DNA of 64,000 nt, taken from contig JAUWHR010000045.1 of NCBI GenBank assembly GCA_030605795.1, positions 3,665 to 67,664 of the forward strand, in the 5' to 3' direction. A program made the translations under genes and the position numbers. The notes under the pieces are model-generated. The model worked only from the letters and a program-made list of their open reading frames with translations. It did no database searches and had not been told where the DNA came from. Each line of letters opens with the position of its first letter. Positions within the stretch are counted from its first letter, which is position 1. The DNA is from Anaerolineae bacterium (lineage in GTDB: Bacteria > Chloroflexota > Anaerolineae > Anaerolineales > E44-bin32). Below are positions 3,140 to 61,847 of the stretch, one piece after another.

Positions 3140-3247
3140 TATAAGGGGAGTGTTCAGTCTTCCTGGGTATAATATTGATGAATGATCCATCCCAGTCAAG
3201 CCCAGTCCAGTAAATCTGGACGAGCGGTCAAGCTGGATGGACGACTG

Positions 3248-3325
3248 GATGAACGATCCCGTCTCGCTCTGCTCGTGGGATGAACGATCCCGTCTCGCTC
3301 TGCTCGCGGGATGAACGATCTTCGG
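3248..3325. repeat. Tandem direct repeat, 2.5 x 31 nt (GATGAACGATCCCGTCTCGCTCTGCTCGYGG)
   Basis: Units at 3248-3278 and 3279-3309 differ by 1 nt. A partial third unit spans 3310-3325. A related GATGAATGATCC occurs at ~3177. The repeat lies in the 580-nt gap upstream of the oppB-like gene. Confidence 0.9.
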
Positions 3326-10553: not shown

Positions 10554-12146
10554 TCACTCTATGTCGATTTTATCAGTGAGGTCCATGAACATGTATGGCC
10601 TCCGGTATTCGGAATAATAAATCTTGTCCGGTAGCAACTCATAGCCGCCGCCGAAGTAATGATTGAAAACCACCCTGAAGGAGTTCACCGGTGTGATTGT
10701 GGGATATAACAGCGTTGCGCCAGCATCGGGCAGATAATAGGCGTTCAGAATCGTCATCCGCTGCTGAACATATGAGACGGTAGAGCTCTTTCCATCTGGG
10801 CCATGGTCGGACTGGAGAATGATGATTGGAGGGGTTTTTGATTTCGTCAGGATGGCGTCAATCACCTCCTGCAATCGACTGTTGATATAGATCAACTGCT
10901 CTCGGTAACCTTCAAGGTATTTCTCTGCGCTCTCCGGTTCGTCGCTGGCAAATGTGAACCCTAGTGTGAAAGTCTGATCTGGTATCAAAAGCTGGCCATT
11001 CCGGCCAAAGACAAACGGCGGGTGGGGTGAGATGATGTGAGCGAATACAAATTTAGGCCCCTCGAGATCGGGCAGTTCTTCCAGATGTTCAAAGATGTTG
11101 AGAATCTTGGACTGGTGTAGACGGTAGGGGTATTTCAGGTCTGGAAAGAAGCGTGGAAGAGCGACCGATGTATCGGTAAGGATCAGACCGGCAGAGGTTC
11201 GGATCAGCATCCCCTCGAAGGAATTGGCTGCGCCCAGCCTGACAAGTTCGTCCGCCGACCCGGCGTTGAAGTAGATGTCGGCGTCCAGGATTTCGGTTCC
11301 GCGCAGCCCTGTAGAAAATGCTACGCTCTTGTAGCCGAGGTCTTCAAAGTTCCTGTGGGTTTGACTGTGTTGCAACAAGTTCCATAGTTGGGCGCGGTTG
11401 GTGCTTTCCGTATCGACTTCGTTGATCAGGTTCTGTATGTAATCGAAGTTTAAAGATGAGGTTATGGATAGAGATGACTGTGCATAGTTGGATCGACTGC
11501 CATCGGCAATGTAGAAACCCGCATTCGTAAGGTACTCGATGAAAGGTGTGTTGTCGTAGTGGAAGACCTCTTCGAGGATGTCGGCCCTGGCGTATGCGTC
11601 GACGATGATGTAGTAGACGTCTGGTGGTTCCTCACCCTCCGGGATGCTGAGTTGATTGCTTGGATCGTGTTGGACTGCCGTCACCGGCGACAGGTTGGTG
11701 GTAAATTGAAACTGGTAGGCGGCTATTGTGTAAAGGGGGAGGATGAGGGATGCGATCGCCACGACGTTCAGGAAGGAATTGGCGATCTGGAGCCTTGCTC
11801 GCGTTCGTAGGATCCACCAACTACCCGCGACGGTTAGCGTGATCCACAGCGGGATCAGGTAACGGTGGCGCCCGATGGCAAAACCCAGGTCGACGGATCG
11901 CAGGAGCGAGTAGACATGGCCGTAGGAGAAGAAGGACAACACGAAGAGCGTAAAAATCAGGCTGGCTTTGTCCCAGTATTTGATGAGCAACCTTATGGAG
12001 AGCAGGAGTATGACGGTGCTGATGAGCACGACCAGTAGCGATCTCACTGCATCCGATACAGGGATCCAGTTGATATTGTGTGCCAGGAGGGCGAGGACTG
12101 GATAGACAGCAAATAACAGGGGATGAACAATAAGAATTCGTTTCAT
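10554..12146 (-). CDS. Membrane-anchored sulfatase / LTA-synthase-like (alkaline-phosphatase superfamily) protein
   Basis: 530 aa. About 5 N-terminal TM helices are followed by an extracytoplasmic domain with PDVYYIIVDAYARAD (the metal-binding D-x-x motif context) and ILQSDHGP. Confidence 0.7.
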   Translation of the reverse strand: MKRILIVHPLLFAVYPVLALLAHNINWIPVSDAVRSLLVVLISTVILLLSIRLLIKYWDKASLIFTLFVLSFFSYGHVYSLLRSVDLGFAIGRHRYLIPLWITLTVAGSWWILRTRARLQIANSFLNVVAIASLILPLYTIAAYQFQFTTNLSPVTAVQHDPSNQLSIPEGEEPPDVYYIIVDAYARADILEEVFHYDNTPFIEYLTNAGFYIADGSRSNYAQSSLSITSSLNFDYIQNLINEVDTESTNRAQLWNLLQHSQTHRNFEDLGYKSVAFSTGLRGTEILDADIYFNAGSADELVRLGAANSFEGMLIRTSAGLILTDTSVALPRFFPDLKYPYRLHQSKILNIFEHLEELPDLEGPKFVFAHIISPHPPFVFGRNGQLLIPDQTFTLGFTFASDEPESAEKYLEGYREQLIYINSRLQEVIDAILTKSKTPPIIILQSDHGPDGKSSTVSYVQQRMTILNAYYLPDAGATLLYPTITPVNSFRVVFNHYFGGGYELLPDKIYYSEYRRPYMFMDLTDKIDIE

Positions 12147-12367
12147 TTTTTATAGTTTTGGGTTATTTGAGGCAATTTTACTGGATTTGGATTGGAATTT
12201 CATTGATACTTCATCCTTGGTTGTCGTTCTCGTCGGTTATTTAGATGCGGTCATATTTTATAGCATTCACAGAAACAAGACAAAATAAGGATTATGTCTG
12301 GGCTAGACTGTCCTGCATCATCGTACCCTACATCCTGCGCTTGTACCAGCACTGGTATAATCCCAGC

Positions 12368-13184: not shown

Positions 13185-16184
13185 TTGTCAAAAAAGCCAC
13201 TAATCACTCTGCAATCCGTGATCCTGACACTGCAGCAATATTGGGCTGACCAGGGTTGCGTGATCTGGCAACCATACCACACGGAAGTCGGGGCTGGAAC
13301 TATGAACCCGGCGACCTTTCTACGTGTCCTCGGTCCGGAACCATGGTGGGTGGCTTATGTTGAACCCTCCATCCGACCCACCGACGGCCGTTATGGTGAG
13401 AACCCCAACCGGTGGCAACATTTTTACCAGTTTCAGGTGATCTTGAAGCCAGATCCAGGTGACCCGCAGGAACGCTATCTTAAATCGCTGGTGGCGCTTG
13501 GTATCGATCCTAGCGAGCACGACATCCGTTTTGTAGAAGACAACTGGGTAGCCCCAGCGCTGGGCGCCTGGGGTTTAGGCTGGGAGGTCTGGCTGGATGG
13601 GCAGGAGATCACTCAGTTCACTTATTTTCAGCAAGCAGGCGGACAGACGCTCGACCCGGTATCGGTTGAGATAACCTACGGTCTGGAACGAATCTTGCTA
13701 GCTGTACAGGGGGTGGATAGCTTTATCGACATCCAGTGGAACGAGCAACTCACCTATGGCGACATTTATTTAAAGGCTGAGCAAGAGCACAGCCGTTACA
13801 ATTTTGAGGTGGCAGATATCGAGCGGCTACGGGTTATGTATGACGAGTTTGAGGCGGAAGCTGAGGGTTGCTTGGCAGCTGATTTAGTGCTTCCTGCGCA
13901 TGATTACGTTCTTAAATGCTCCCACACCTTCAATCTTCTCAACGCACGCGGCGCGGTTGGGGTCACCGAGCGAGCCGCTCTCTTCGGTCGCATGCGGGAT
14001 CTGGCACGACAGGTTGCCGAAGCTTACCTGGCCGAGCGTGAAGCGTTGGGATATCCATGGCGAGAATATTGGCAAATCTTTACGCCCGAGTTGCCTCAGG
14101 TGCGTGAGGAAATCCCGCCTCCCGAAGCACCGGCACCCTTCCTGTTGGAAATCGGCACCGAAGAGCTGCCGGCGGGTGATCTAGACACTGCTTTGGAGCA
14201 GTTGCCCAAGCTGGTTGATCAGATGCTGGTTGATAGCCGGCTTGATCATGGGCAGGTTCGGGTAATGGGCACCCTACGAAGGCTGGTGGTCTATGTTGAT
14301 GACCTAGCTCCTATGCAGACAGAGCAGGTAACGCTGGTGAAGGGGCCACCGGCTGATCGCGCCTTCGACGACGAGGGTAATCCCACGCCTGCGGCGGAAG
14401 GCTTTGCTCGTAGCAAAGGGGTCTCGGTGGAAGAGCTGGAGGTAATTGAGCAGGATGGTGGACGGTATGTAGTAGCCGAGGTCCGCCAGCCAAGTCTGCC
14501 GGCCGATGAGGTGTTGTGCGAGATGCTTTCCGCCTTAATCGCCAATGTGGTTTTTGAGAAATCCATGCGATGGAATCAGACCGGAGTGATCTTTTCCCGC
14601 CCGATCCGGTGGCTTCTGGCGCTCCACGGGGAGCATGTTGTTCCATTTGAGTATGCTGGGCTGAGGACTGGTCGTACTACGCGTACCCTTCGCTTTGATG
14701 ATTCTGAGATGCAGAACGTAGCCAACCCGGAGGCTTATTTCGAGGCACTTGAGGGGAGGGGGATCCTGTTGGAGGTCGAGGTGCGCAAGGCGTCGATTGA
14801 GGAGCAGATTGCGCAATTGGCCAAGGAGGTCGGGGGTGAGGTGCCCGGCGACCCGAGGTTGCTAGCTGAAGTTGCCAACTTGGTCGAGAAACCGACCGCG
14901 CTGCGGGGGAGTTTTGATAAGACCTTTCTCGACCTGCCGGGGCAAGTATTGATCTCGGTGATGAAAAAGCACCAGCGTTGCTTCCCAGTACAGCGGGATG
15001 GCGAGTTACTTCCATATTTTATCGCCGTGCGTAATGGCGGAGCAGAGCATCTGGAGGTGGTGACCCGGGGCAACGAGCATGTCATCCGGGCTCGTTTTGT
15101 AGACGCGGTTTATTTCATTGATCGTGACTTACAGCAGCCATTGGAATCCTATCTGCCTAGGCTAGCCACAATGACCTTTCAGGCCAGTCTGGGCTCGATG
15201 CTGGATAAGGTCGAGCGGGTCGAGCATTTGACTGCAATCCTGGCGGATGATTTAGGTTTGAGCCCTCAGGAAAAGCAGTTCGCCCTACGAGCGGCGCACT
15301 TATCGAAGGCTGATTTGGCGACGCAGATGGTCGTCGAGATGACCTCCCTGCAAGGGGAGATGGGTCGTGAGTACGCGCAGCGATCGGGTGAACCGAGTGA
15401 GGTAGCCGAGGCGATCTTTGAGCATCATCTTCCTCGTTTCGCAGGGGATCGTCTCCCTCAATCCCAACCGGGGTTGGTGGTCGGTGTAGCGGATCGATTG
15501 GATACATTGATGGGGCTATTTGCCGCTGGGTTGCGATCGACCGGCGCCGGTGATCCGTTTGCCATGCGCCGGGTTGCGATTGGCTTGGTGCAGATGCTCA
15601 TAACAAAGAGTATTCGTTTTGACTTGCGCTATGGGTTGAAGCAAGCCGCGGTGGGTTTACCAATCGAAGCGGCGAATGATTCGGCGGAAGCATGCCTGAG
15701 GTTCATCGTCGCCCGACAGCAAGCTCACCTGCTGAGCGAGAGCTATCGGTACGATGTGGTTGAAGCTATTCTGGCTGAGCAGGGTCACGACCCGGCTGGC
15801 GCCGCGCAAGCCGTGGAAGCCCTCCAGCAGTGGGTGGAGCGGGATGATTGGCCTGAAACCCTCCAGGCTTATGCCCGTTGCGTTCGGATCACACGTGACG
15901 AGACCGTAGTACATACTCTTGACCCCGACCGTTTGGTTGAGGGGGAAGAACGGCATTTGTATGCTGCGCTTCAAGCGGCTGAGGGCACATCATGTACCTC
16001 GGGATCGATAGATGATTTCGTCTCCACCTTTCGGCTCATGATCCCCGCGATTAGTACTTTTTTTGATGAGGTCTTGGTTATGGATGAGGATCAGAACCTT
16101 CGCGCCAATAGGTTGGGATTATTGCAGCGAATTGCTGCTTTAAGTGGTGGGGTAGCTGACCTATCGAAGTTAGAAGGTTTCTAG
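13185..16184 (+). CDS. glyQS: Glycine--tRNA ligase, fused alpha+beta chain
   Basis: The alpha part reads [51 protein letters not shown]. It continues in frame into a ~700-aa GlyS-like beta part. TTG 13185 sits 6 nt after GAGGGA; the tracked ATG 13131 would overlap recO. Confidence 0.9.
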
Positions 16185-22645: not shown

Positions 22646-22996
22646 ATGGCTAAGCCCAAGATCGATGCTTATAATTTCGGTCGGATCGTGATCGACGGAC
22701 AGGTCTATCAACGAGATGTGATTCTCCTCCCGGATCGTGTGTTACCCAATTGGTGGCGCGTCGAAGATCACTCGCTGGCTCTTGAGGATCTGCAGCAGGC
22801 TCTTGGTTGCTCGCCGCAGGTGCTGGTGATTGGATTGGGAAAGTATAGCCGGATGAAGGTGCCAGAGGAGACCCTGAAGCAGATTGAAGCCGCTGGAATC
22901 CGGCTGATAGCTCTGGAGACTAGTGAGGCTTGTGAAACTTATAACCAATTGCGTGAGCAGGAGCACGTAGTTGCTGCCTTGCACCTTACTTGTTAA
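22646..22996 (+). CDS. Mth938-like (DUF498) domain protein
   Basis: 116 aa. F.G.I.IDG..Y..DVI......V..W pattern and ..VLVIGLG... typical of the family. Confidence 0.6.
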   Translation: MAKPKIDAYNFGRIVIDGQVYQRDVILLPDRVLPNWWRVEDHSLALEDLQQALGCSPQVLVIGLGKYSRMKVPEETLKQIEAAGIRLIALETSEACETYNQLREQEHVVAALHLTC

Positions 22997-23226
22997 GGAA
23001 CGCACAAAAGGTTGTTCTCTTCCAACTCAGGGTGATCGAGTGCAGGTGAGGTTGTCCGCTTTCGGAGGTAAGGAGTTATGCCCATCGACTTTTGGTGTTT
23101 CTTATCATGGAAAAGGATGAAGTGCCTGATCCATTCAACATAACATCTTTCGGTATGATATGAATAGTGCTTGCGCTGGATGGCATCTCGGACCAGATCT
23201 AGCAGCTTGTTAGGACGTTGAGACAT
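22993..23226 (-). pseudogene. Integron-integrase-like tyrosine recombinase, N-terminal fragment only
   Basis: LLDLVRDAIQRKHYSYHTERCYVEWIRHFILFHDKKH..MG parallels the IntI N-terminus (LDQLRERIR.LHYS.RTEQAYV.WVR.FI.FH..RHP..LG). Similarity stops after ~50 aa, and the catalytic domain is absent. Confidence 0.65.
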
Positions 23227-23325
23227 CTGTTTAACCCTCTTGGTTGATGGTTACTGGGAATTGTTATATGCTCTAGTTGGAGTGTAGGGTCGATAGGGAA
23301 TATTGCATGTAGCACCCCCTTTAGG

Positions 23326-24264
23326 ATGACAGTACAGAATTCACGCCAGATAATCCAGTATAAAGAGACCTTTGATGAATTTCAGCATCTCATACTGTTG
23401 ATAGAGAAAGCCTTACGGCCACAGGGGGCGAATGTTACTGAGTCGAAAGAACTACTTGATCACATTCTCAGTGAAGAACGAGAGGTTGATATTGTGATCG
23501 AGTTCATCGACGGCATTCATCATGTGACGATTGGTGTGGAATGCAAAGGTGGTGGAAAGAAACCCAGAAGAGCAACAGTAGAATGGGTTGAACAAATGTG
23601 GGGAAAACACCTGACCTTGCCAACAGATAAACTAATCCTTGTTGCCAAGGCTGGATTCACCTCATCAGCGGAAAAGAAAGCTGCATTCTGGAACATTAAG
23701 ACGCTCAGTTTATCCCAGGCCGAAAATTCTGATTGGACCTCAGTTATTCGCAAGCTTAACTCGATTAATGTGGTAAATTTTCTTCTTCCGTACGCTACCC
23801 GCGCAACAGTGGTATTATGGATTGGCCCAAACGAAGATGAAGTTGATATGACCAAGATTGACTTGCAAAACTCAATGCTGTACGACGCAGCGGGCTCTAA
23901 AATCTCTACACCTCAGATACTTGTAGAAAGATGGCTCAGCGATCCAGTATTACTTCGAGAGATAGAAAAATTGGCTTATACAGACAGTGGCACAATTATC
24001 GAATTCGAGCGGAACCTAAAACCCGGAGAGTATTTAGTTGATGAAACTGGAAAAAAGCGGTCAGTCGTTGCAATCAAAGTCGAAGCAAAATGTAAAAAAG
24101 AAGTAACCACCGTTGAAATGTCGCAGGGATCGTACGGGGAAGCTGCGCTTTCATACGGAAAAGCCCGCTTCTTTAGAAAGTCGATGCAGTTTCTGGCAGT
24201 TCAACAACCGGATGATGATCCACGCCTCATTGTTTCAGTGAAGCAGCCAAAATCCAACAAATAA
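23326..24264 (+). CDS. PD-(D/E)xK restriction-endonuclease-like protein with unknown C-terminal domain (integron cassette ORF)
   Basis: The motif ..REVDIVIEF..(13 aa)..IGVECKGGG fits D...(D/E)xK of Mrr/NucS-like nuclease folds. The ~180 C-terminal aa carry no recognisable motif. Low GC. An attC follows immediately. Confidence 0.6.
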   Translation: MTVQNSRQIIQYKETFDEFQHLILLIEKALRPQGANVTESKELLDHILSEEREVDIVIEFIDGIHHVTIGVECKGGGKKPRRATVEWVEQMWGKHLTLPTDKLILVAKAGFTSSAEKKAAFWNIKTLSLSQAENSDWTSVIRKLNSINVVNFLLPYATRATVVLWIGPNEDEVDMTKIDLQNSMLYDAAGSKISTPQILVERWLSDPVLLREIEKLAYTDSGTIIEFERNLKPGEYLVDETGKKRSVVAIKVEAKCKKEVTTVEMSQGSYGEAALSYGKARFFRKSMQFLAVQQPDDDPRLIVSVKQPKSNK

Positions 24265-24289
24265 AATGAAAGGCATAGCTTGATCGCCA

Positions 24290-24408
24290 TATAACAAATT
24301 GCTCAACCGGACGCCAAGAGCCGCGCTTTTAAGCGAAGGCTTTGTGCGTAAGGAGTAGAATTTTGGTGAAGCGCTACGAGCGCGCCGGTTAGCTCAAAGC
24401 CGTTATGT
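24290..24408 (+). mobile_element. Integron attC recombination site
   Basis: Left end ATATAAC-AAATT-GCTCAACCGGAC, right end GCCGGTTAGCTC-AAAGCC-GTTATGT. This is an imperfect palindrome with the R''/L''...L'/R' layout and unpaired bases, closely resembling classical attC ends (..TAACAATTCGTTCAAGCCGAC...GGCTTAACTCAAGCGTTAG..). Confidence 0.75.
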
Positions 24409-24508
24409 CGCTCATTTAATTAGGATATTCGGGAAATTCGTTCTTGGTATGGCAATTTATTTAGCTATCACGTGCTTCTCTAGAAATGTAAGCGGGAGAG
24501 GGTAGATC

Positions 24509-24994
24509 ATGAGACTGCGATTGAGGATCATCGCTTTTCCATTAGCCAGCATCACCCTTATTTCCTGCTGGTTCGTATTCTTCCTCTTCCTTCGTACTTC
24601 TCCCAGTAAGCCCCTTTTCATCATAGGGAATATCCTCATAGTAATCGGACTGCTGCTGATAATTCTTGCTATGTCTGCCTTACGAACACAGGGGATGACT
24701 CAAGATAAGCAGGACTTCACCGCAACAACAACGATCGTGAAGAGTGGGATCTACTCGATTGTCCGACACCCCCTTTATTTGGGCTGGCTTTTGATGTACC
24801 CCGCAGCTATGTTAGTGAGTCAACACTGGTTAGTATTAATATTAGGGGTAGTTGGTATGCTAAGCATGTATGTGATCACGATAGAAGCTGAGGACCGGCT
24901 AATAGATAAGTTTGGATTGGAATATCAGACGTATATGCAGGAAGTGCCAAGGTTCAATATCATCTTAGGCTTATGGTGCAAGTTACGGAGCTAG
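24509..24994 (+). CDS. Isoprenylcysteine carboxyl methyltransferase (ICMT/PEMT) family membrane protein
   Basis: 161 aa and polytopic. The GIYSIVRHPLYLG motif is typical of the ICMT/PEMT family. SD GGGAGAGGG. Confidence 0.7.
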   Translation: MRLRLRIIAFPLASITLISCWFVFFLFLRTSPSKPLFIIGNILIVIGLLLIILAMSALRTQGMTQDKQDFTATTTIVKSGIYSIVRHPLYLGWLLMYPAAMLVSQHWLVLILGVVGMLSMYVITIEAEDRLIDKFGLEYQTYMQEVPRFNIILGLWCKLRS

Positions 24995-25226
24995 AATGAT
25001 GATAATGTGAGCGGCATAATCACTCGCCAGACTGGATAAAAATTCAGCTAAAAGACTAATGGTGGGGGGAAATCGGTAAGAATTGTTTGGAAATAATGGA
25101 TAGCTCCCGTGGTTCAAACATTAATGGGGTTATAAATAGGGAGCTGTCCAGTGATTTTGAATATGGTTAACTTTTTTGGGCCCTCGCTGTAGCTCATTGG
25201 ATGAAACCCAAGCTGGTGTTGAAGAC

Positions 25227-25292
25227 CGGCTCCCTGCTGATTTATCTCTGGGGCTGGGTCCCCCTAATGCCCAGGGGACCAGCAGGGAGCCG
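25227..25292. repeat. Strong bulged hairpin in a 760-nt non-coding stretch
   Basis: CCGGCTCCCTGCTG[14-17 nt bulge]CTGGGTCCCC - loop - GGGGACCAGCAGGGAGCCG. About 21 bp are paired in total. Confidence 0.6.
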
Positions 25293-25757
25293 ATACTAAC
25301 TAATCATTGTGCCTTACCTGCTCAGTGCGCCAGGAGCACCACCATCGACTTGGAGATCTACCTTGCTCAACTCGGCTTGGATAAGGTTCTCGGAGCTCAT
25401 CACTATAGCTGACAGAAGATCCTCTCACCTCACACCACCTCGGACAACCTTTTATCTTGGACATAGCTTAGCAAGGCAGCGTTCTGCCAGTGTGGGATGG
25501 ATCGTTTATTCAGCGTGTTTTCTGAGGCAGATTGATGGACTCGCGAAAAAAAGAATAATCTGGAGGGGATTCTTGGGTTAAATAAATGTCCCTTGAGTTG
25601 GGCTAGACTGTTTCTCGTGTTCTGAAGTAATATGCGCGGTTGAAACAGGCTGCATAATGTGTACTTACTGATGCTATACTGTTATGAGCCATTCAGCTCG
25701 TGACAAAGCTCTGCTTTAAATCGAACACAATAACCCGCCCCGGGGGATGGTAAAGAA

Positions 25758-27704
25758 ATGTTAGAAATCCGCTTGCTTGGGGAATTCGACGTTCGTCTAG
25801 AAGGGCAACCGATCGAGATCCCTTCGCGCCCGGCGCAGTCGCTACTGGCTTACCTTGTTCTAAACGCAGAAACCCGTCATCGTAGGGAGAAGTTAGCAGG
25901 TTTGCTGTGGCCGGAATCGGAGGAATCCAACGCCCGCAGCAACCTGCGCCACGCGCTGTGGCGACTCCGTAAGGCGATCGGGGAGAAGTATTTTCTCGCT
26001 GATAAAGTTTCCATCGCTTTCATACCCACCGAAGATTGCGAACTCGACGTCTCTTACTTTGGAGATGAGAGGACTGAGACGGAATCGACCATGGATCTGA
26101 TCCGCGAAGTCTCCGTCTACGGGGGTGAACTCCTACCAGGCTTCTACGAAGGCTGGGTTGTTTTGGAACGAGAACAGCTGCGAGCTACTTTTGAGCATAC
26201 GATCCAGAGGCTGTTAGATTTGTTGATTGAAAAGCAGTCTTGGTTGGAGGTCCTTGAATGGGGAGAGCGGTGGATCGCGACGGGATATGTGCCTGAGCCC
26301 GCATACCGAGCATTGATGATCGCGTATCGCGGTCTGGGGGATTCCTCAGGGGTGGCTGCGGTATACCAGAGATGTTGTGAAGCGCTACACAGCGAGTTGG
26401 GTGTCGAGCCGTCGGAACAAACGCGGTCGATATTTGATAGGCTCTCCAAAGGTGGAGAGCCCTCGGTGGTTGCACGAGTTTACCCAGAAAGAGAGAGGGT
26501 TGATGCCTCAGTAGACGCGGTAAGGATGCTGCTTAAGCACTGGCGGCAAAAGGGTGTGAAGATTTTGGATCTGGCTAGCCTAGCTATGGTTTATGCTGCC
26601 AGGCCGGATGACCCGTTTGACCCAGAAGATGCTGCTTTGCTTATCCGTAGTGCACTACAGCACGAAGTCGATATTGAACCGTGGCTTAAGCGCGCTGGCT
26701 CACCGCAGGTCGTGGTGGCAACACTAGATGAAGTATTAGGCACATATCCAAAGCCTCGGATTAGGAAGAGGATCGTCCAAGCGCTTAAAGGCTTGGAGTA
26801 CGAGGAAGTGGATAATGTATTGCTGCATGTTGTCGAGAGTGACGATTCGGCCGAGATCCGGGCCGAAGCTGCGGTGACACTTGCCCAAAGGGGAAAACAG
26901 GATGTTGTAGTAGAACTTTTGCTGGACCAGATAAACTTAAGTGATAATGCAGCGGCAATTGCGGCTTTCGTTGCGGTTGTTGATGAAGTGGGTCTCTCCA
27001 AGGAGGTTGGTCCTTATCCCAAGCTCCCCGTCCTAGCAGCGCTTGCCGAGAGGCGTTGGAAAGATGGACGGCGATTGCTATTGAGGCAGGTGGGGCGGGT
27101 AAGCCTTGGGGCGGTAATCATATCCGCTTTGCATGGCAGCGCCGCGCCATTCTATATAGCACTCTCGCTTCCAGATAGTTATCACGATACGCTACAAGTT
27201 CTATCTCTACCCACATGGATGCTCAGTGGAGCCCTGGGTATGATGCTAATCGGTGGGGCTCAGGGTTTGGCTTCCAGTTTCGCAATTGGATTGGCCGATG
27301 TTTTCTTGAGGGGTCGAACGCGGAGATTCTGGCGCCATATACTAGGAAGTCTGGCGGGTTTAGCTCACGCTGGATTTCTCATTGTATATACGATAATGGG
27401 TAATATGGAACCCACGTCTGAGTCCACAGTTTATATATCTGTATGCGTTTTTTATAGTTTACTTCTTGGTGCTGCGTTGTCGATTGTCTTTCCGCAACTC
27501 GGGACTTCATCCTCTACTCGGCAACAACTCAAACGCGCGGCGTGGGGGGCGGCAGCGGCTGCCCTGGCGACGACCCCATATGTCATTGGCTATCTATTTT
27601 ACTTTAGCGAGGCCCCAGGCACGGTACCGGAACGCCTGGTATTTTCAATCTTACTTACACTGGGGATCGCGCTCGCACTTAGAAATCCTGGCGTAGAAAT
27701 CTAA
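25758..27704 (+). CDS. SARP-family (OmpR-type wHTH + BTAD) regulator fused to HEAT-like repeats and a C-terminal ~6-TM domain
   Basis: The N-terminus reads LEIRLLGEFDVRLEGQPIEI..RPAQSLLAYLVL......REKLAGLLWPE....ARSNLRHALWRLRKA. BTAD reads ..YRALMIAYRGLGD...AAVYQRC...L..ELGVEPS..T. The middle has DDSAEIRAEAAVTLAQRG (HEAT-like). The last ~210 aa contain six hydrophobic helices. Confidence 0.75.
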   Translation: MLEIRLLGEFDVRLEGQPIEIPSRPAQSLLAYLVLNAETRHRREKLAGLLWPESEESNARSNLRHALWRLRKAIGEKYFLADKVSIAFIPTEDCELDVSYFGDERTETESTMDLIREVSVYGGELLPGFYEGWVVLEREQLRATFEHTIQRLLDLLIEKQSWLEVLEWGERWIATGYVPEPAYRALMIAYRGLGDSSGVAAVYQRCCEALHSELGVEPSEQTRSIFDRLSKGGEPSVVARVYPERERVDASVDAVRMLLKHWRQKGVKILDLASLAMVYAARPDDPFDPEDAALLIRSALQHEVDIEPWLKRAGSPQVVVATLDEVLGTYPKPRIRKRIVQALKGLEYEEVDNVLLHVVESDDSAEIRAEAAVTLAQRGKQDVVVELLLDQINLSDNAAAIAAFVAVVDEVGLSKEVGPYPKLPVLAALAERRWKDGRRLLLRQVGRVSLGAVIISALHGSAAPFYIALSLPDSYHDTLQVLSLPTWMLSGALGMMLIGGAQGLASSFAIGLADVFLRGRTRRFWRHILGSLAGLAHAGFLIVYTIMGNMEPTSESTVYISVCVFYSLLLGAALSIVFPQLGTSSSTRQQLKRAAWGAAAAALATTPYVIGYLFYFSEAPGTVPERLVFSILLTLGIALALRNPGVEI

Positions 27705-29646: not shown

Positions 29647-29787
29647 GGGTATCCTTGGTATTATCTATTCGATATTTAATTCTATCGCTTGAGGAACCAG
29701 CGGTCAATGGGATGGTTGTTGGCGGGTATATATCAGGGTGTCCAAGCACAAGTGAGTTCCACCCATTCCGGCGTCTGTTTCTCTACT

Positions 29788-30708
29788 TCATTCTATACGT
29801 TGTATCTTGAACCGGTCAAAATCTCTTGCAACGGTGACATTAGGGAAGATTGCGCTAGCTTCTTCACGAACCTCCCTTTCCCGGTAGCGGCGTGAGATAT
29901 GGGTCAAGTAGAGGTGCCCCACTCCGGCTTGGAGGGCAAGCTCAGCGGCTTGGCGGGCGGTAAGATGGCCGAACGTGCGTGCTAGGTCGGCTTCAGGCTC
30001 TAGGTAAGTCGCTTCGATGATCAACCCATCAGCTTGACGGCATATCTCGACCAGGTTTTCCGTGCGACCACAGTCCCCAACATGAACCAAGCGGGTGCCG
30101 CGGCGGGGTGGACCCAGGATGTCGTCAGGTGTTATGATCCGACCATCCGGCAGGGTCACCTGATTTCCGTTCACCAACTCGCGCCGGATAGGCCCAGTGG
30201 GAACCCCGAGTTCTTCAGCGCGCTCGGGGAGAAACGGGCGGTGGGGAAGTTCCTCAAATATGAAACCAAAGCAACCCGAACCGCGATGTATTACGGGGAA
30301 GGTTGAGAGCCGTAGGCCATCTTCCTCAACAAGAAGGCCGGACTTGATGGGCTTCATATGAATCTCCATTGGGGGGCGTGCGCCGCGTAAAACGACTCCA
30401 AACAATAAGTCACGAATGCGCTCCATCGCCCAATCGCCGGCCCAAATTTCTAGTTGGTCGATCGCTTCCCAGCGGGAGAATGTTGATATCAATCCAGCTA
30501 AACCGAGGATGTGGTCCAGGTGGCCATGGGTGATGAAAATTCGATTTAGACGACGGAAACCAATGCCTGATTGTAAGATCTGCCGTTGGGTACCTTCACC
30601 ACAGTCGATTAAGAAGCGGTGGTTGCGATAGCTGACCACCTGTGCGGTGAGACCTCGGTGGATGGAGGGTGCTGAAGCAGAAGTACCTAAAAAAATTATT
30701 TCGAACAA
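29788..30708 (-). CDS. rnz: Ribonuclease Z (metallo-beta-lactamase fold)
   Basis: FLGTSASAPS..R......V.......FLIDCGEGTQRQ and ITHGHLDHILGL (HxHxDH motif). 306 aa. Confidence 0.85.
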   Translation of the reverse strand: MFEIIFLGTSASAPSIHRGLTAQVVSYRNHRFLIDCGEGTQRQILQSGIGFRRLNRIFITHGHLDHILGLAGLISTFSRWEAIDQLEIWAGDWAMERIRDLLFGVVLRGARPPMEIHMKPIKSGLLVEEDGLRLSTFPVIHRGSGCFGFIFEELPHRPFLPERAEELGVPTGPIRRELVNGNQVTLPDGRIITPDDILGPPRRGTRLVHVGDCGRTENLVEICRQADGLIIEATYLEPEADLARTFGHLTARQAAELALQAGVGHLYLTHISRRYREREVREEASAIFPNVTVARDFDRFKIQRIE

Positions 30709-61485: not shown

Positions 61486-61541
61486 GATGATGGTCTCCTT
61501 GATTCTGAATGCAGGGTTTGTCTTACCCTTCGCAGCGATGG

Positions 61542-61847
61542 CTAACGTTCGATCGTAAGGTCGATCTCATTGGGGTTATCTGATTCCAGGCTCACCTTTG
61601 CGCCGGGTAGATAGGTGGCCGTCATGGCGCGATACACCTCCCGGTAGAACGGCTCCACCAAGTCGGAAAGGTCATAATCCAGCAACGCCTGGATGACAGG
61701 CGATTTGGTAACCCGGAACGAATACCGATCCGGTTTCACTTCTAACTCCTCGATTTCACACACATACTGGCAGGGAAGATCGGAATAGCGGATCATATTG
61801 GCTGGTTGGGGTTCGATTTCCAGTTCTTGATGCGCTTCACGCATCAT
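61542..61847 (-). CDS. Hypothetical protein
   Basis: 101-aa ORF on the same strand as its neighbours, tightly spaced between them. No motif recognised. Confidence 0.4.
   Translation of the reverse strand: MMREAHQELEIEPQPANMIRYSDLPCQYVCEIEELEVKPDRYSFRVTKSPVIQALLDYDLSDLVEPFYREVYRAMTATYLPGAKVSLESDNPNEIDLTIER

Follow-up and report, generated by a model that had tools for sequence, protein, structure and literature searches.

A probable remnant of a sedentary chromosomal integron, with a truncated cassette and a complete attC, in an uncultured Anaerolineales bacterium

We examine an integron-derived locus in the genome of an uncultured Anaerolineales bacterium (assembly GCA_030605795.1, contig JAUWHR010000045.1, positions 3,665 to 67,664 of the forward strand). 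This whole stretch of 64,000 nucleotides is referred to as the window, and positions are counted from its first letter. The locus consists of a stub of the integrase gene intI, part of an attI site, a gene cassette, and the attC recombination site of that cassette. It is very probably what remains of a sedentary chromosomal integron in an Anaerolineales (Chloroflexota) lineage, disabled by at least 2 deletions: one that truncated intI, and one that took the attI crossover together with the start of the cassette.

A decayed chromosomal integron had been proposed at this place from the letters of the sequence alone (the original prediction). Much of that proposal stands: the IntI stub, the divergent cassette open reading frame (ORF), and a single, correctly oriented attC are all present. 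Other parts give way under comparison with related contigs, specifically the position assigned to attI, the integrity of the cassette, and the label “CALIN-like” (CALIN, clustered attC sites that lack an integron integrase). The features of the locus are as follows.

22993-23226, minus strand: intI pseudogene stub, a 77-aa ORF of which only residues ~4-50 (23080-23215) derive from IntI.
23227-23382: retained intI-proximal part of attI, 156 nt, 90-98% conserved in all relatives and including a GTTATAT at 23263-23269.
23326-23354, plus strand: promoter-like ATGACA-17-GATAAT facing the cassettes, with 10/12 matches in a consensus scan, conserved in relatives.
23326-24264, plus strand: chimeric ORF of 312 aa, with 19 attI-derived codons in frame with residues 9-301 of a predicted PD-(D/E)xK nuclease.
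23375-23382, plus strand: deletion junction, an 8-nt microhomology (ATGAATTT) common to attI-proximal DNA and to codons 6-8 of the native cassette gene.
23383-24402, plus strand: gene cassette truncated at its 5' end and closing on the right with the G of the R' GTT; contigs L133/L134 hold a complete copy of 97% identity.
24289-24408: attC, 120 nt, with the bottom (recombinogenic) strand being the minus strand of the window; R'' at 24289-24295, L'' at 24301-24314, L' at 24382-24393, and R' (GTTATGT) at 24402-24408.
24403-25190, plus strand: unit following attC, with a guanine-plus-cytosine (GC) content of 0.41-0.45; it comprises a PEMT/ICMT-family ORF and a low-GC tail and is shared with contigs L136-L138.

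The integrase gene is reduced to a decaying stub

The original prediction took the first ~50 residues of the minus-strand ORF for the N-terminus of an integron integrase, and matches over ~49 residues bear this out. Residues 8-49 match the N-terminal SAM-like integrase domain PF13495 (E 5.6e-11). In NCBIfam, only integron-integrase models match (TIGR02249 over its positions 1-42, E 4.4e-10, and PRK15417 over positions 12-57), and no XerC/XerD or other Xer-family model does so at E<=1. Among PDB chains, the sole meaningful match is the integron integrase VchIntI4 (2a3v, E 5.7e-5); the other chain listed is the BceS sensor (E 0.71). Since only IntI models match the stub and Xer families do not, it is IntI-derived. 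The original prediction had named a generic Xer N-terminus as the result that would speak against it, and a control makes the distinction plain: an Xer-like recombinase encoded on L134 shows the opposite pattern, with XerA/XerD/XerC models at ~61-64 bits and TIGR02249 at just 26 bits. This recombinase adjoins the other copy of the cassette and had been a candidate for an IntI-like protein; the candidate was rejected, as the protein is Xer-like and has no detectable similarity to the stub.

The IntI similarity stops at residue ~50 (window position 23080). A full-length IntI from locus L013 (463 bits to TIGR02249), used as a tblastn query, matches window 23211-23080 alone, and neither a catalytic domain (PF00589) nor any further IntI fragment was found in the 64-kb window or in any relative recovered. 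The ORF itself runs on until its stop codon overlaps the end of the neighboring DUF498/Mth938-like gene, as the original prediction had noticed. The stub protein has a database entry from this contig, and its nearest named relative is entered as “MAG: integrase [Anaerolineales bacterium]” (MAG, metagenome-assembled genome).

The same truncation, adjoining the DUF498 gene, is common to the window and to 5 contigs that span the breakpoint and are 92-98% identical to it (L001, L004, L053, L077, and L102). In a sister lineage (L005-7, L084), the IntI similarity is kept to residue ~66-68 and the left flank is a different one. Among orthologous stubs, those of L007 and L053 are interrupted by in-frame stops and that of L102 by a frameshift, and only nonsynonymous changes separate the window stub from those of the closest strains (5:0 and 3:0). 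On these grounds, the notion of a functional small protein was rejected. The stub is a decaying IntI-derived pseudogene, and the intI gene is dead.

A scan of one genome per species with the first 49 residues of the stub recovered 16 loci with IntI N-termini. As an observation in its own right, the intI frame closes early in about half of these loci (L009, L016, L017, L018, L019, L021, and L022), in hosts that include a Leptolyngbyaceae cyanobacterium, a Thiosymbion symbiont, Azovibrio, and Azonexus; within this sample, pseudogenes of the integrase are common.

The palindrome behind the cassette gene is a genuine attC

The imperfect palindrome that begins 24 nt past the 312-aa ORF, 1.06 kb from the start of the stub, is a genuine attC. 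On the top strand it reads R'' (ATATAAC), AAATT, and L'' (GCT-C-AACCGG-A-CGC), followed after the variable region by L' (GCG-CCGGTT-AGC), TCAAAGCC, and R' (GTTATGT). The L stem is built from 3 bp and 6 bp (GCT-AACCGG-CGC versus GCG-CCGGTT-AGC), with a G and a T bulged out on the bottom strand, and the R boxes pair at 6 of their 7 positions. The site departs from the consensus in its AT-rich R boxes and its 67-nt variable region.

The site was tested with a covariance model built independently of the window. Among the 16 loci mentioned above, a repeat search that used no attC pattern uncovered ~70-nt repeat families upstream of intI in 3 Rhodocyclales loci, and 6 of these repeats seeded a first model, R1. 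This model recovered the attCs of aadA1, aadA2, aac(6')-Ib, cmlA1, qacL, and blaGES-1 on class 1/3 integron plasmids, as well as those of a Diaphorobacter integron, all on the expected strand. It was too narrow, missing the true class 1 attCs of SIM-1, dfrA1, and arr-3, and its place was taken by model R2, rebuilt from 27 R1 hits, which are attCs of unrelated integrons and include none from the window. R2 matches the window at 24408..24289 of the minus strand over the whole model (positions 1-64), with 28.1 bits and a rough E-value of 1.7e-4. It is the sole significant match in 64 kb; the second-best reaches 12.3 bits (E 1.2). On attCs outside its training set, R2 gives 28.7 bits (arr-3) and 34, 30, and 22 bits (L022), and in a negative control of 464 kb, made up of 76 of the unrelated contigs from a metagenome scan described below, it reaches 17.0 bits at most. 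The original prediction had proposed the R''-L''/L'-R' layout with its unpaired bases and had agreed to fall if a covariance model scored the site below threshold; the home-built R2 instead returns the boundaries exactly as proposed. A search of the window in Rfam, which contains no attC family, gave a tRNA as its sole match.

Two further matches of the model are of separate interest. The second-best match in the window (61540-61581) has R-box-like ends, GGCTAAC...GGGTTAT, 42 nt apart at the boundary of 2 minus-strand ORFs, and is most likely due to chance. In a Fibrobacteraceae MAG (L020), matches of 24.5 and 36 bits (11552-11647 and 12266-12330, minus strand) lie downstream of a full-length intI and on the strand opposite to those of all other loci, an arrangement suggestive of an integron in which the integrase is inverted.

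The cassette is truncated and fused to attI-proximal DNA

The plus-strand ORF that runs divergently from the stub is present as originally described, at 23326-24264. The accompanying view of an intact, fixed cassette does not survive: the cassette has lost its 5' untranslated region (UTR) and first 8 codons, and attI-proximal DNA makes up the start of the ORF, which is a chimera. The 312-aa protein has homologues of ~300 aa, which start M/L-PKRSNEFQHL; the window protein starts MTVQNSRQIIQYKETFDEF-QHL. The same gene and attC are found as a unit in a second context, on JGI contigs L133/L134, with 97% nucleotide identity over window 23375-24397; there, the cassette copy adjoins the Xer-like gene. 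Upstream of the gene, L133/L134 carry the 3' end of a different attC (...GAGCTCGAGGCC G|TTATAAGG...), a leader of ~75 nt, and a TTG start. The native 5' end of the cassette thus reads G|TTATAAGGC..., continuing to the TTG start and MPKRSNEF, and is missing from the window.

At the junction, L133/L134 read ...GATCTAATGAATTT-CAGCATC... (cassette), and the relatives of the window read ...ATGAATTT-ACTCCATAAAAATCC... (attI); the window passes from attI-proximal to cassette sequence inside the octamer ATGAATTT, which is present in both parents. As read from these comparisons, the junction bears the signature of a microhomology-mediated deletion. In the relatives, the attI-side reading frame is closed by stops, so the in-frame fusion of attI-derived codons to the cassette gene is accidental. 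In the L133/L134 copy, neither R box of the attC is left (ATATATC, no GTT), and the match is confined to model positions 10-57, with 10.3 bits. The window accordingly holds the better-preserved attC and the worse-preserved gene start, since the L133/L134 copy lost its R boxes and kept its native start.

The attI crossover lies beyond the retained segment

Related contigs were recovered through the stub protein, the DUF498 protein, and an 18-mer metagenome scan; the latter gave 101 contigs, 4 of which are real relatives. The attI region was compared by BLAST and alignment of L001, L004, L005-7, L053, L077, L084, and L102. All 7 contigs that extend beyond 23382 lose similarity to the window exactly there, and stay alike among themselves for another ~62 nt (ACTCCATAAAAATCCCCCCAGAGGGGGATACTTGGAAATTTTTCTAGAGAATCACTAGTTAT), diverging only afterwards. 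In 6 relatives, the conserved attI ends ...CACTAGTTAT, with the crossover GTTAT, in a segment that is absent from the window. Because the relatives share DNA up to this point and diverge after it, the attI crossover of the lineage is the GTTAT that ends the ~62-nt segment, and it is deleted in the window.

The original prediction had suggested the GTTATAT at 23263-23269 as a possible crossover. The motif is present, but it lies in a stretch conserved in all relatives (as GTAATAT in L004/L053), whose variable DNA starts ~180 nt further on, after ...CACTAGTTAT; the candidate was therefore rejected.

Behind the attI of the relatives stand different genes: an NYN-domain gene in L004/L053, something else in L102, small zinc-ribbon and SRPBCC genes in L084, and, in L077, a fragment of a nuclease, a DNA methyltransferase, and a transposase of the IS110 type. 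These arrays contain long, weak attC-like sites in the correct orientation (16.9 bits in L077, 10.9 in L053, and 9.8 in L084), which share with the window attC an extended L'-R' spacer of 7-8 nt and a long variable region. The promoter-like site in the retained part of attI (23326-23354) is possibly an equivalent of the integron promoter Pc.

Several side observations concern the same region in the relatives. In their distal attI, which the window lacks, a small hairpin (CCCCCCAGAGGGGG) is conserved; it lies ~40 nt ahead of the crossover GTTAT (e.g., L053 1043-1113, reverse strand). The stretches L077 1773-3218 and 3435-4793 belong to the cassette array of a sister strain, whose IS110-family transposase gene is apparently frameshifted. 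The methyltransferase gene near the attI of L077 is of the N4/N6 type and, with the short nuclease-like ORF, makes up a restriction-modification pair as first cassettes.

Two comparisons place the right end of the cassette

Same-species contigs L136-L138, 96% identical, align with the window from 24398 on. To the left of 24398, their cassette is a different one (DUF6506); its canonical 71-nt attC (38.7 bits) ends GTTATGC and has a 6-nt spacer. Past R', the window (GTTATGT) and L136-L138 (GTTATGC) both continue CGCTCATTTAAT.... Identity to L133/L134 ends at 24397 and identity to L136-L138 starts at 24398, both within 5 nt of G24402. From these 2 independent comparisons, the cassette end is placed at the G|TT of R', 24402|24403. 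Because R' coincides with the homology breakpoints of both, the attC appears to have been used for integrase-mediated exchange, with R' serving as an IntI crossover point.

The unit that follows (24403-25190) is absent from the distant relative L139/L140, whose BTAD protein is 77% identical and in which homology resumes at 25193. L139/L140 have no synteny left of 25193, and the end of the array is therefore not fixed precisely. Given its low GC and its start exactly at the crossover, the unit may be the last cassette, with its attC lost; it could equally be the original flank of the array, and we give the cassette reading slightly less than even weight. A scan of 24380-25800 found no second attC above 7.2 bits after the ICMT ORF, and inverted repeats at 25015-25159 and 25097-25150, considered as candidates, do not fit an attC. 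The original count of one cassette may be an undercount if this ICMT-family unit is a second, attC-less one.

The cassette may encode a restriction or defense-type nuclease

The cassette protein matches Mrr_cat with 18.3 bits, below the 21-bit Pfam cutoff. An AlphaFold model based on a 27-sequence alignment has a mean predicted local distance difference test (pLDDT) score of 86.5; residues 1-13, attI-derived, are disordered. The first ~115 ordered residues are predicted to take a PD-(D/E)xK restriction-endonuclease-like fold, with a Foldseek match to 1y88 (E 2.6e-5) and weaker matches (E 0.014-0.04) to the nuclease domains of AspBHI, MspJI, and BamHI (AspBHI/MspJI E 0.014-0.025). Foldseek found no match among solved structures for the beta-rich C-terminal half. 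D55 and E72 are invariant among homologues; the lysine after E72-C73 is not. From the predicted structure, a restriction or defense-type nuclease is a reasonable reading of the product. PADLOC gave no match for this or the other ORF examined.

A neighbor of the nuclease family is worth recording. On L135 (176-724), a gene whose product has a PycTM domain, which in Pycsar systems is the transmembrane effector domain, lies directly upstream of a 69%-identical nuclease homologue (P0006). This hints at a defense-island context for the family.

A proposed history of the locus

Comparison indicates that the DUF498 gene and the BTAD regulator gene once flanked an ancestral, divergent intI-attI-cassette array. 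The intI gene then lost everything beyond codon ~50, a loss common to the window, L001, L004, L053, L077, and L102, with the sister lineage cut at codon ~66-68. In the window strain only, a deletion between 2 copies of ATGAATTT took the last ~62 nt of attI, including the crossover ...CACTAGTTAT, along with any cassettes between the copies and with the 5' UTR and first 8 codons of the nuclease cassette. Through this deletion, what is left of the nuclease gene came to be preceded, in frame, by 19 attI-derived codons. The cassette retains a complete attC, with R and L boxes and 2 extrahelical bottom-strand bases. Lacking an integrase and an attI core, the locus would be unable to capture cassettes by itself, and its cassette would be fixed unless an integrase acting in trans uses the surviving attC. 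The cassette gene may still be transcribed from the promoter on the attI side, yielding a PD-(D/E)xK nuclease with an altered N-terminus.

Weighing the alternatives

Several observations weigh against a decayed integron. The L'-R' spacer of the attC, at 8 nt, is 2 nt above the consensus, and the R boxes have one mismatch. R1 missed the site at E<=10, and the attC scores come from a home-built model with rough E-values. The folding energy is no better than that of shuffled sequences (z = -0.9 for the bottom strand, -0.55 for the top strand), so that folding the bottom strand, a check proposed at the outset, does not discriminate. The count of promoter-like sites in the region is not above chance. 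Lastly, no contig joins the left and right flanks in any relative, and the ancestral array is reconstructed from pieces. The modest folding score, together with the occurrence of PF13495 in several recombinase families, could favor a locus unrelated to integrons, in which the stub is left from a tyrosine recombinase of the Xer or phage type and the palindrome represents a terminator or an element like the repetitive extragenic palindromic (REP) sequences. So could a purely structural attC scan, which yields ~10 loosely attC-shaped sites in the window, including an equally “perfect” chance site at 13683-13853; that scanner was dropped as non-specific. Yet only IntI families match the stub, the covariance-model match is unique and full-length, and orientation, distance to the ORF stop, and homology breakpoints all fit the rules of integron cassettes; we consider an origin outside integrons the least probable account of all. 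Scarcely more probable is that no integron was ever resident, and that an integrase acting in trans put the cassette at a secondary, non-att site beside an unrelated recombinase fragment. IntI-mediated insertion of cassettes outside att sites is described in a preprint (bioRxiv 10.1101/2022.09.11.507474), but such an event should leave the target on both sides, and the attI continuation ACTCCATAAAAATCC... is found neither after the attC nor anywhere in the window. Moreover, the left junction lies inside cassette coding sequence and not at a GTT, and relatives hold a full attI and multi-cassette arrays at the same locus beside the same stub. The arrangement of the original prediction, a single intact cassette between a crossover at GTTATAT and the attC, fixed in CALIN-like fashion, draws on a motif that fits a GTTRRRY-like pattern 37 nt from the intI start and on an ORF that is open from 23326 to 24264. 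It is refuted by the conservation of 23227-23382 in all relatives, whatever their cassettes, and by the native cassette start on L133/L134, which the window lacks; there is also one attC where CALIN needs at least 2. We regard it as highly improbable, on a level with insertion at a secondary site.

A weightier alternative is that the orphan array is still dynamic, its attC and the intact attI of sister strains being serviced in trans by an integrase elsewhere in the genome or on a visiting mobile element. Contigs with the same intI truncation (the window, L001, L004, L053, L077, and L102) vary in the first cassette that follows the attI GTTAT; a whole cassette, swapped exactly at R', separates the window from the 96%-identical L136-L138; and the same cassette recurs in another context with 97% identity. 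Different cassettes behind an identical intI truncation, joined precisely at the attI GTTAT and the attC R', can be read as continued exchange. However, the same pattern is expected if strains lost different parts of a larger ancestral array, or if homologous recombination took place through the conserved flanks with intI-bearing donors. In addition, an intact intI was not found within the 64 kb of this genome, and the attI core of the window is gone, which makes insertion there impossible. We judge a still dynamic array unlikely, although far less so than the 3 accounts above, and the fuller claim, that cassette exchange at the locus went on after the resident integrase gene was destroyed and that an orphan attI/attC array was maintained in trans, a shade more doubtful. 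If true, it would represent a natural orphan attI/attC array maintained by another integrase in uncultured Chloroflexota; as a by-product, the deletion would have created an in-frame fusion through which the nuclease may have gained a new N-terminus and be expressed from the attI side.

Relation to known integrons

A decayed sedentary integron can be set against published definitions. In the classification of Cury et al. (2016; PMC4889954), a complete integron has at least one attC and an IntI that both PF00589 and a C-terminal profile specific to IntI recognize; an IntI is required for In0, and at least 2 attCs for CALIN. At the locus, PF00589 and the C-terminal part of IntI are missing, at least one attC lies near intI, and the attI crossover GTT is absent; one attC is detectable in 64 kb. 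The locus falls under none of the 3 definitions, and the label “CALIN-like” has to be dropped, with a next-best attC match of 12.3 bits. The same study counts 431 single attC sites, whose relevance is unclear, proposes that such elements arise when intI is lost and cassettes degrade genetically, screens for pseudogenes by means of the intI_Cterm and PF00589 domains, and lists Chloroflexi among the phyla with integrons (PMC4889954). An attC without a functional integrase nearby is what the window has in common with its CALIN and single attC sites, and some of the latter may be loci of this kind. Because the intI_Cterm and PF00589 parts are missing, an N-terminal-only stub would escape the published pseudogene screen; such a remnant with a single attC falls outside published definitions and marks a blind spot in detection. 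The Chloroflexota host is not surprising, since Chloroflexi were already on the list.

The fate of the locus has a counterpart in other chromosomal integrons. Gillings and coworkers reportedly described, in 2005, chromosomal integrons of Xanthomonas located next to ilvD and with an inactivated integrase. The likeness lies in a chromosomal position between conserved housekeeping-type genes, an intI that decayed lineage-wide by deletion or stops, and strain-specific cassettes. The window differs in that only ~50 N-terminal intI codons remain, the attI crossover is deleted, there is a single attC, and the host is an uncultured Anaerolineales bacterium. The attC resembles those of class 1/3 integrons (aadA1, aac(6')-Ib, and blaGES-1; L025, L026, and L029) in its R''-L''...L'-R' layout, its AAC/GTT cores, and its position just past an ORF; with the aadA1 attC it shares the 3-bp and 6-bp L stem with bottom-strand G and T bulges. 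Unlike these, it has R boxes rich in AT, a variable region of 67 nt, and an L'-R' spacer of 8 nt instead of 6. ORF-11 of attI1 is a leader ORF encoded by attI, and cassette genes can be translationally coupled or fused to such leaders. In the window, too, an ORF that begins in the attI region runs into the first cassette gene, but the fusion is the accidental product of a microhomology deletion that destroyed attI and not a feature of an intact attI.

The locus is a fresh example of a well-known element type and a well-known fate, that is, of ordinary genome decay, and leaves the understanding of integrons unchanged. It provides a worked example of integron death: stepwise truncation of intI, loss of the attI core by microhomology-mediated deletion, and a cassette stranded with an intact attC. 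General models score the long attC-like sites of the relatives weakly. For cassette counts in these uncultured bacteria, a lineage-specific model would be needed.

Genomic setting and further observations

The neighboring genes of the locus are as follows.

Left-hand neighbors: a radical-SAM protein gene (minus strand), a cold-shock protein gene (minus strand), and an acylphosphatase gene (plus strand).
22646-22996, plus strand: DUF498/Mth938-like gene, convergent with the stub ORF, whose stop overlaps its end.
24509-24994, plus strand: PEMT/ICMT-family methyltransferase ORF, with Pfam/NCBIfam matches.
25758-27704, plus strand: BTAD/SARP regulator gene.

Between the PEMT/ICMT-family ORF and the BTAD/SARP regulator gene, ~760 nt are free of ORFs. 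The drop in GC that the original prediction saw from ~23.2 kb is real, with values of 0.41-0.48 across ~23.0-25.4 kb against 0.50-0.56 on both sides. The species is represented in the genome collection by isolate E29_bin24. Exact-protein look-ups with the cassette, ICMT, and BTAD proteins gave no match.

Three minor features of the window were noted in passing. Short GC-rich repeat units arranged head to tail (e.g., GGATGAACGATCCCGTCTCGCTCTGCTCGYGG) occupy an intergenic stretch at 3190-3310, and a 42-nt match to them (90%) lies inside the cassette array of L084 (4170-4300); the units resemble a dispersed intergenic repeat specific to the lineage. Upstream of the BTAD regulator, at 25227-25292, the ORF-free DNA holds a perfect inverted repeat of 13 nt, CGGCTCCCTGCTG / CAGCAGGGAGCCG, around a 40-nt spacer containing GGTCCCC...GGGGACC; this stretch is conserved with distant relatives and is not attC-like (6.2 bits). 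On the right flank, a metallo-beta-lactamase-fold gene at ~29780-30700 (homologous to L136 6527-7447) carries precomputed Pfam assignments to the Anti-Pycsar_Apyc1 and Lactamase_B families, and probably encodes a housekeeping RNase Z-like enzyme.

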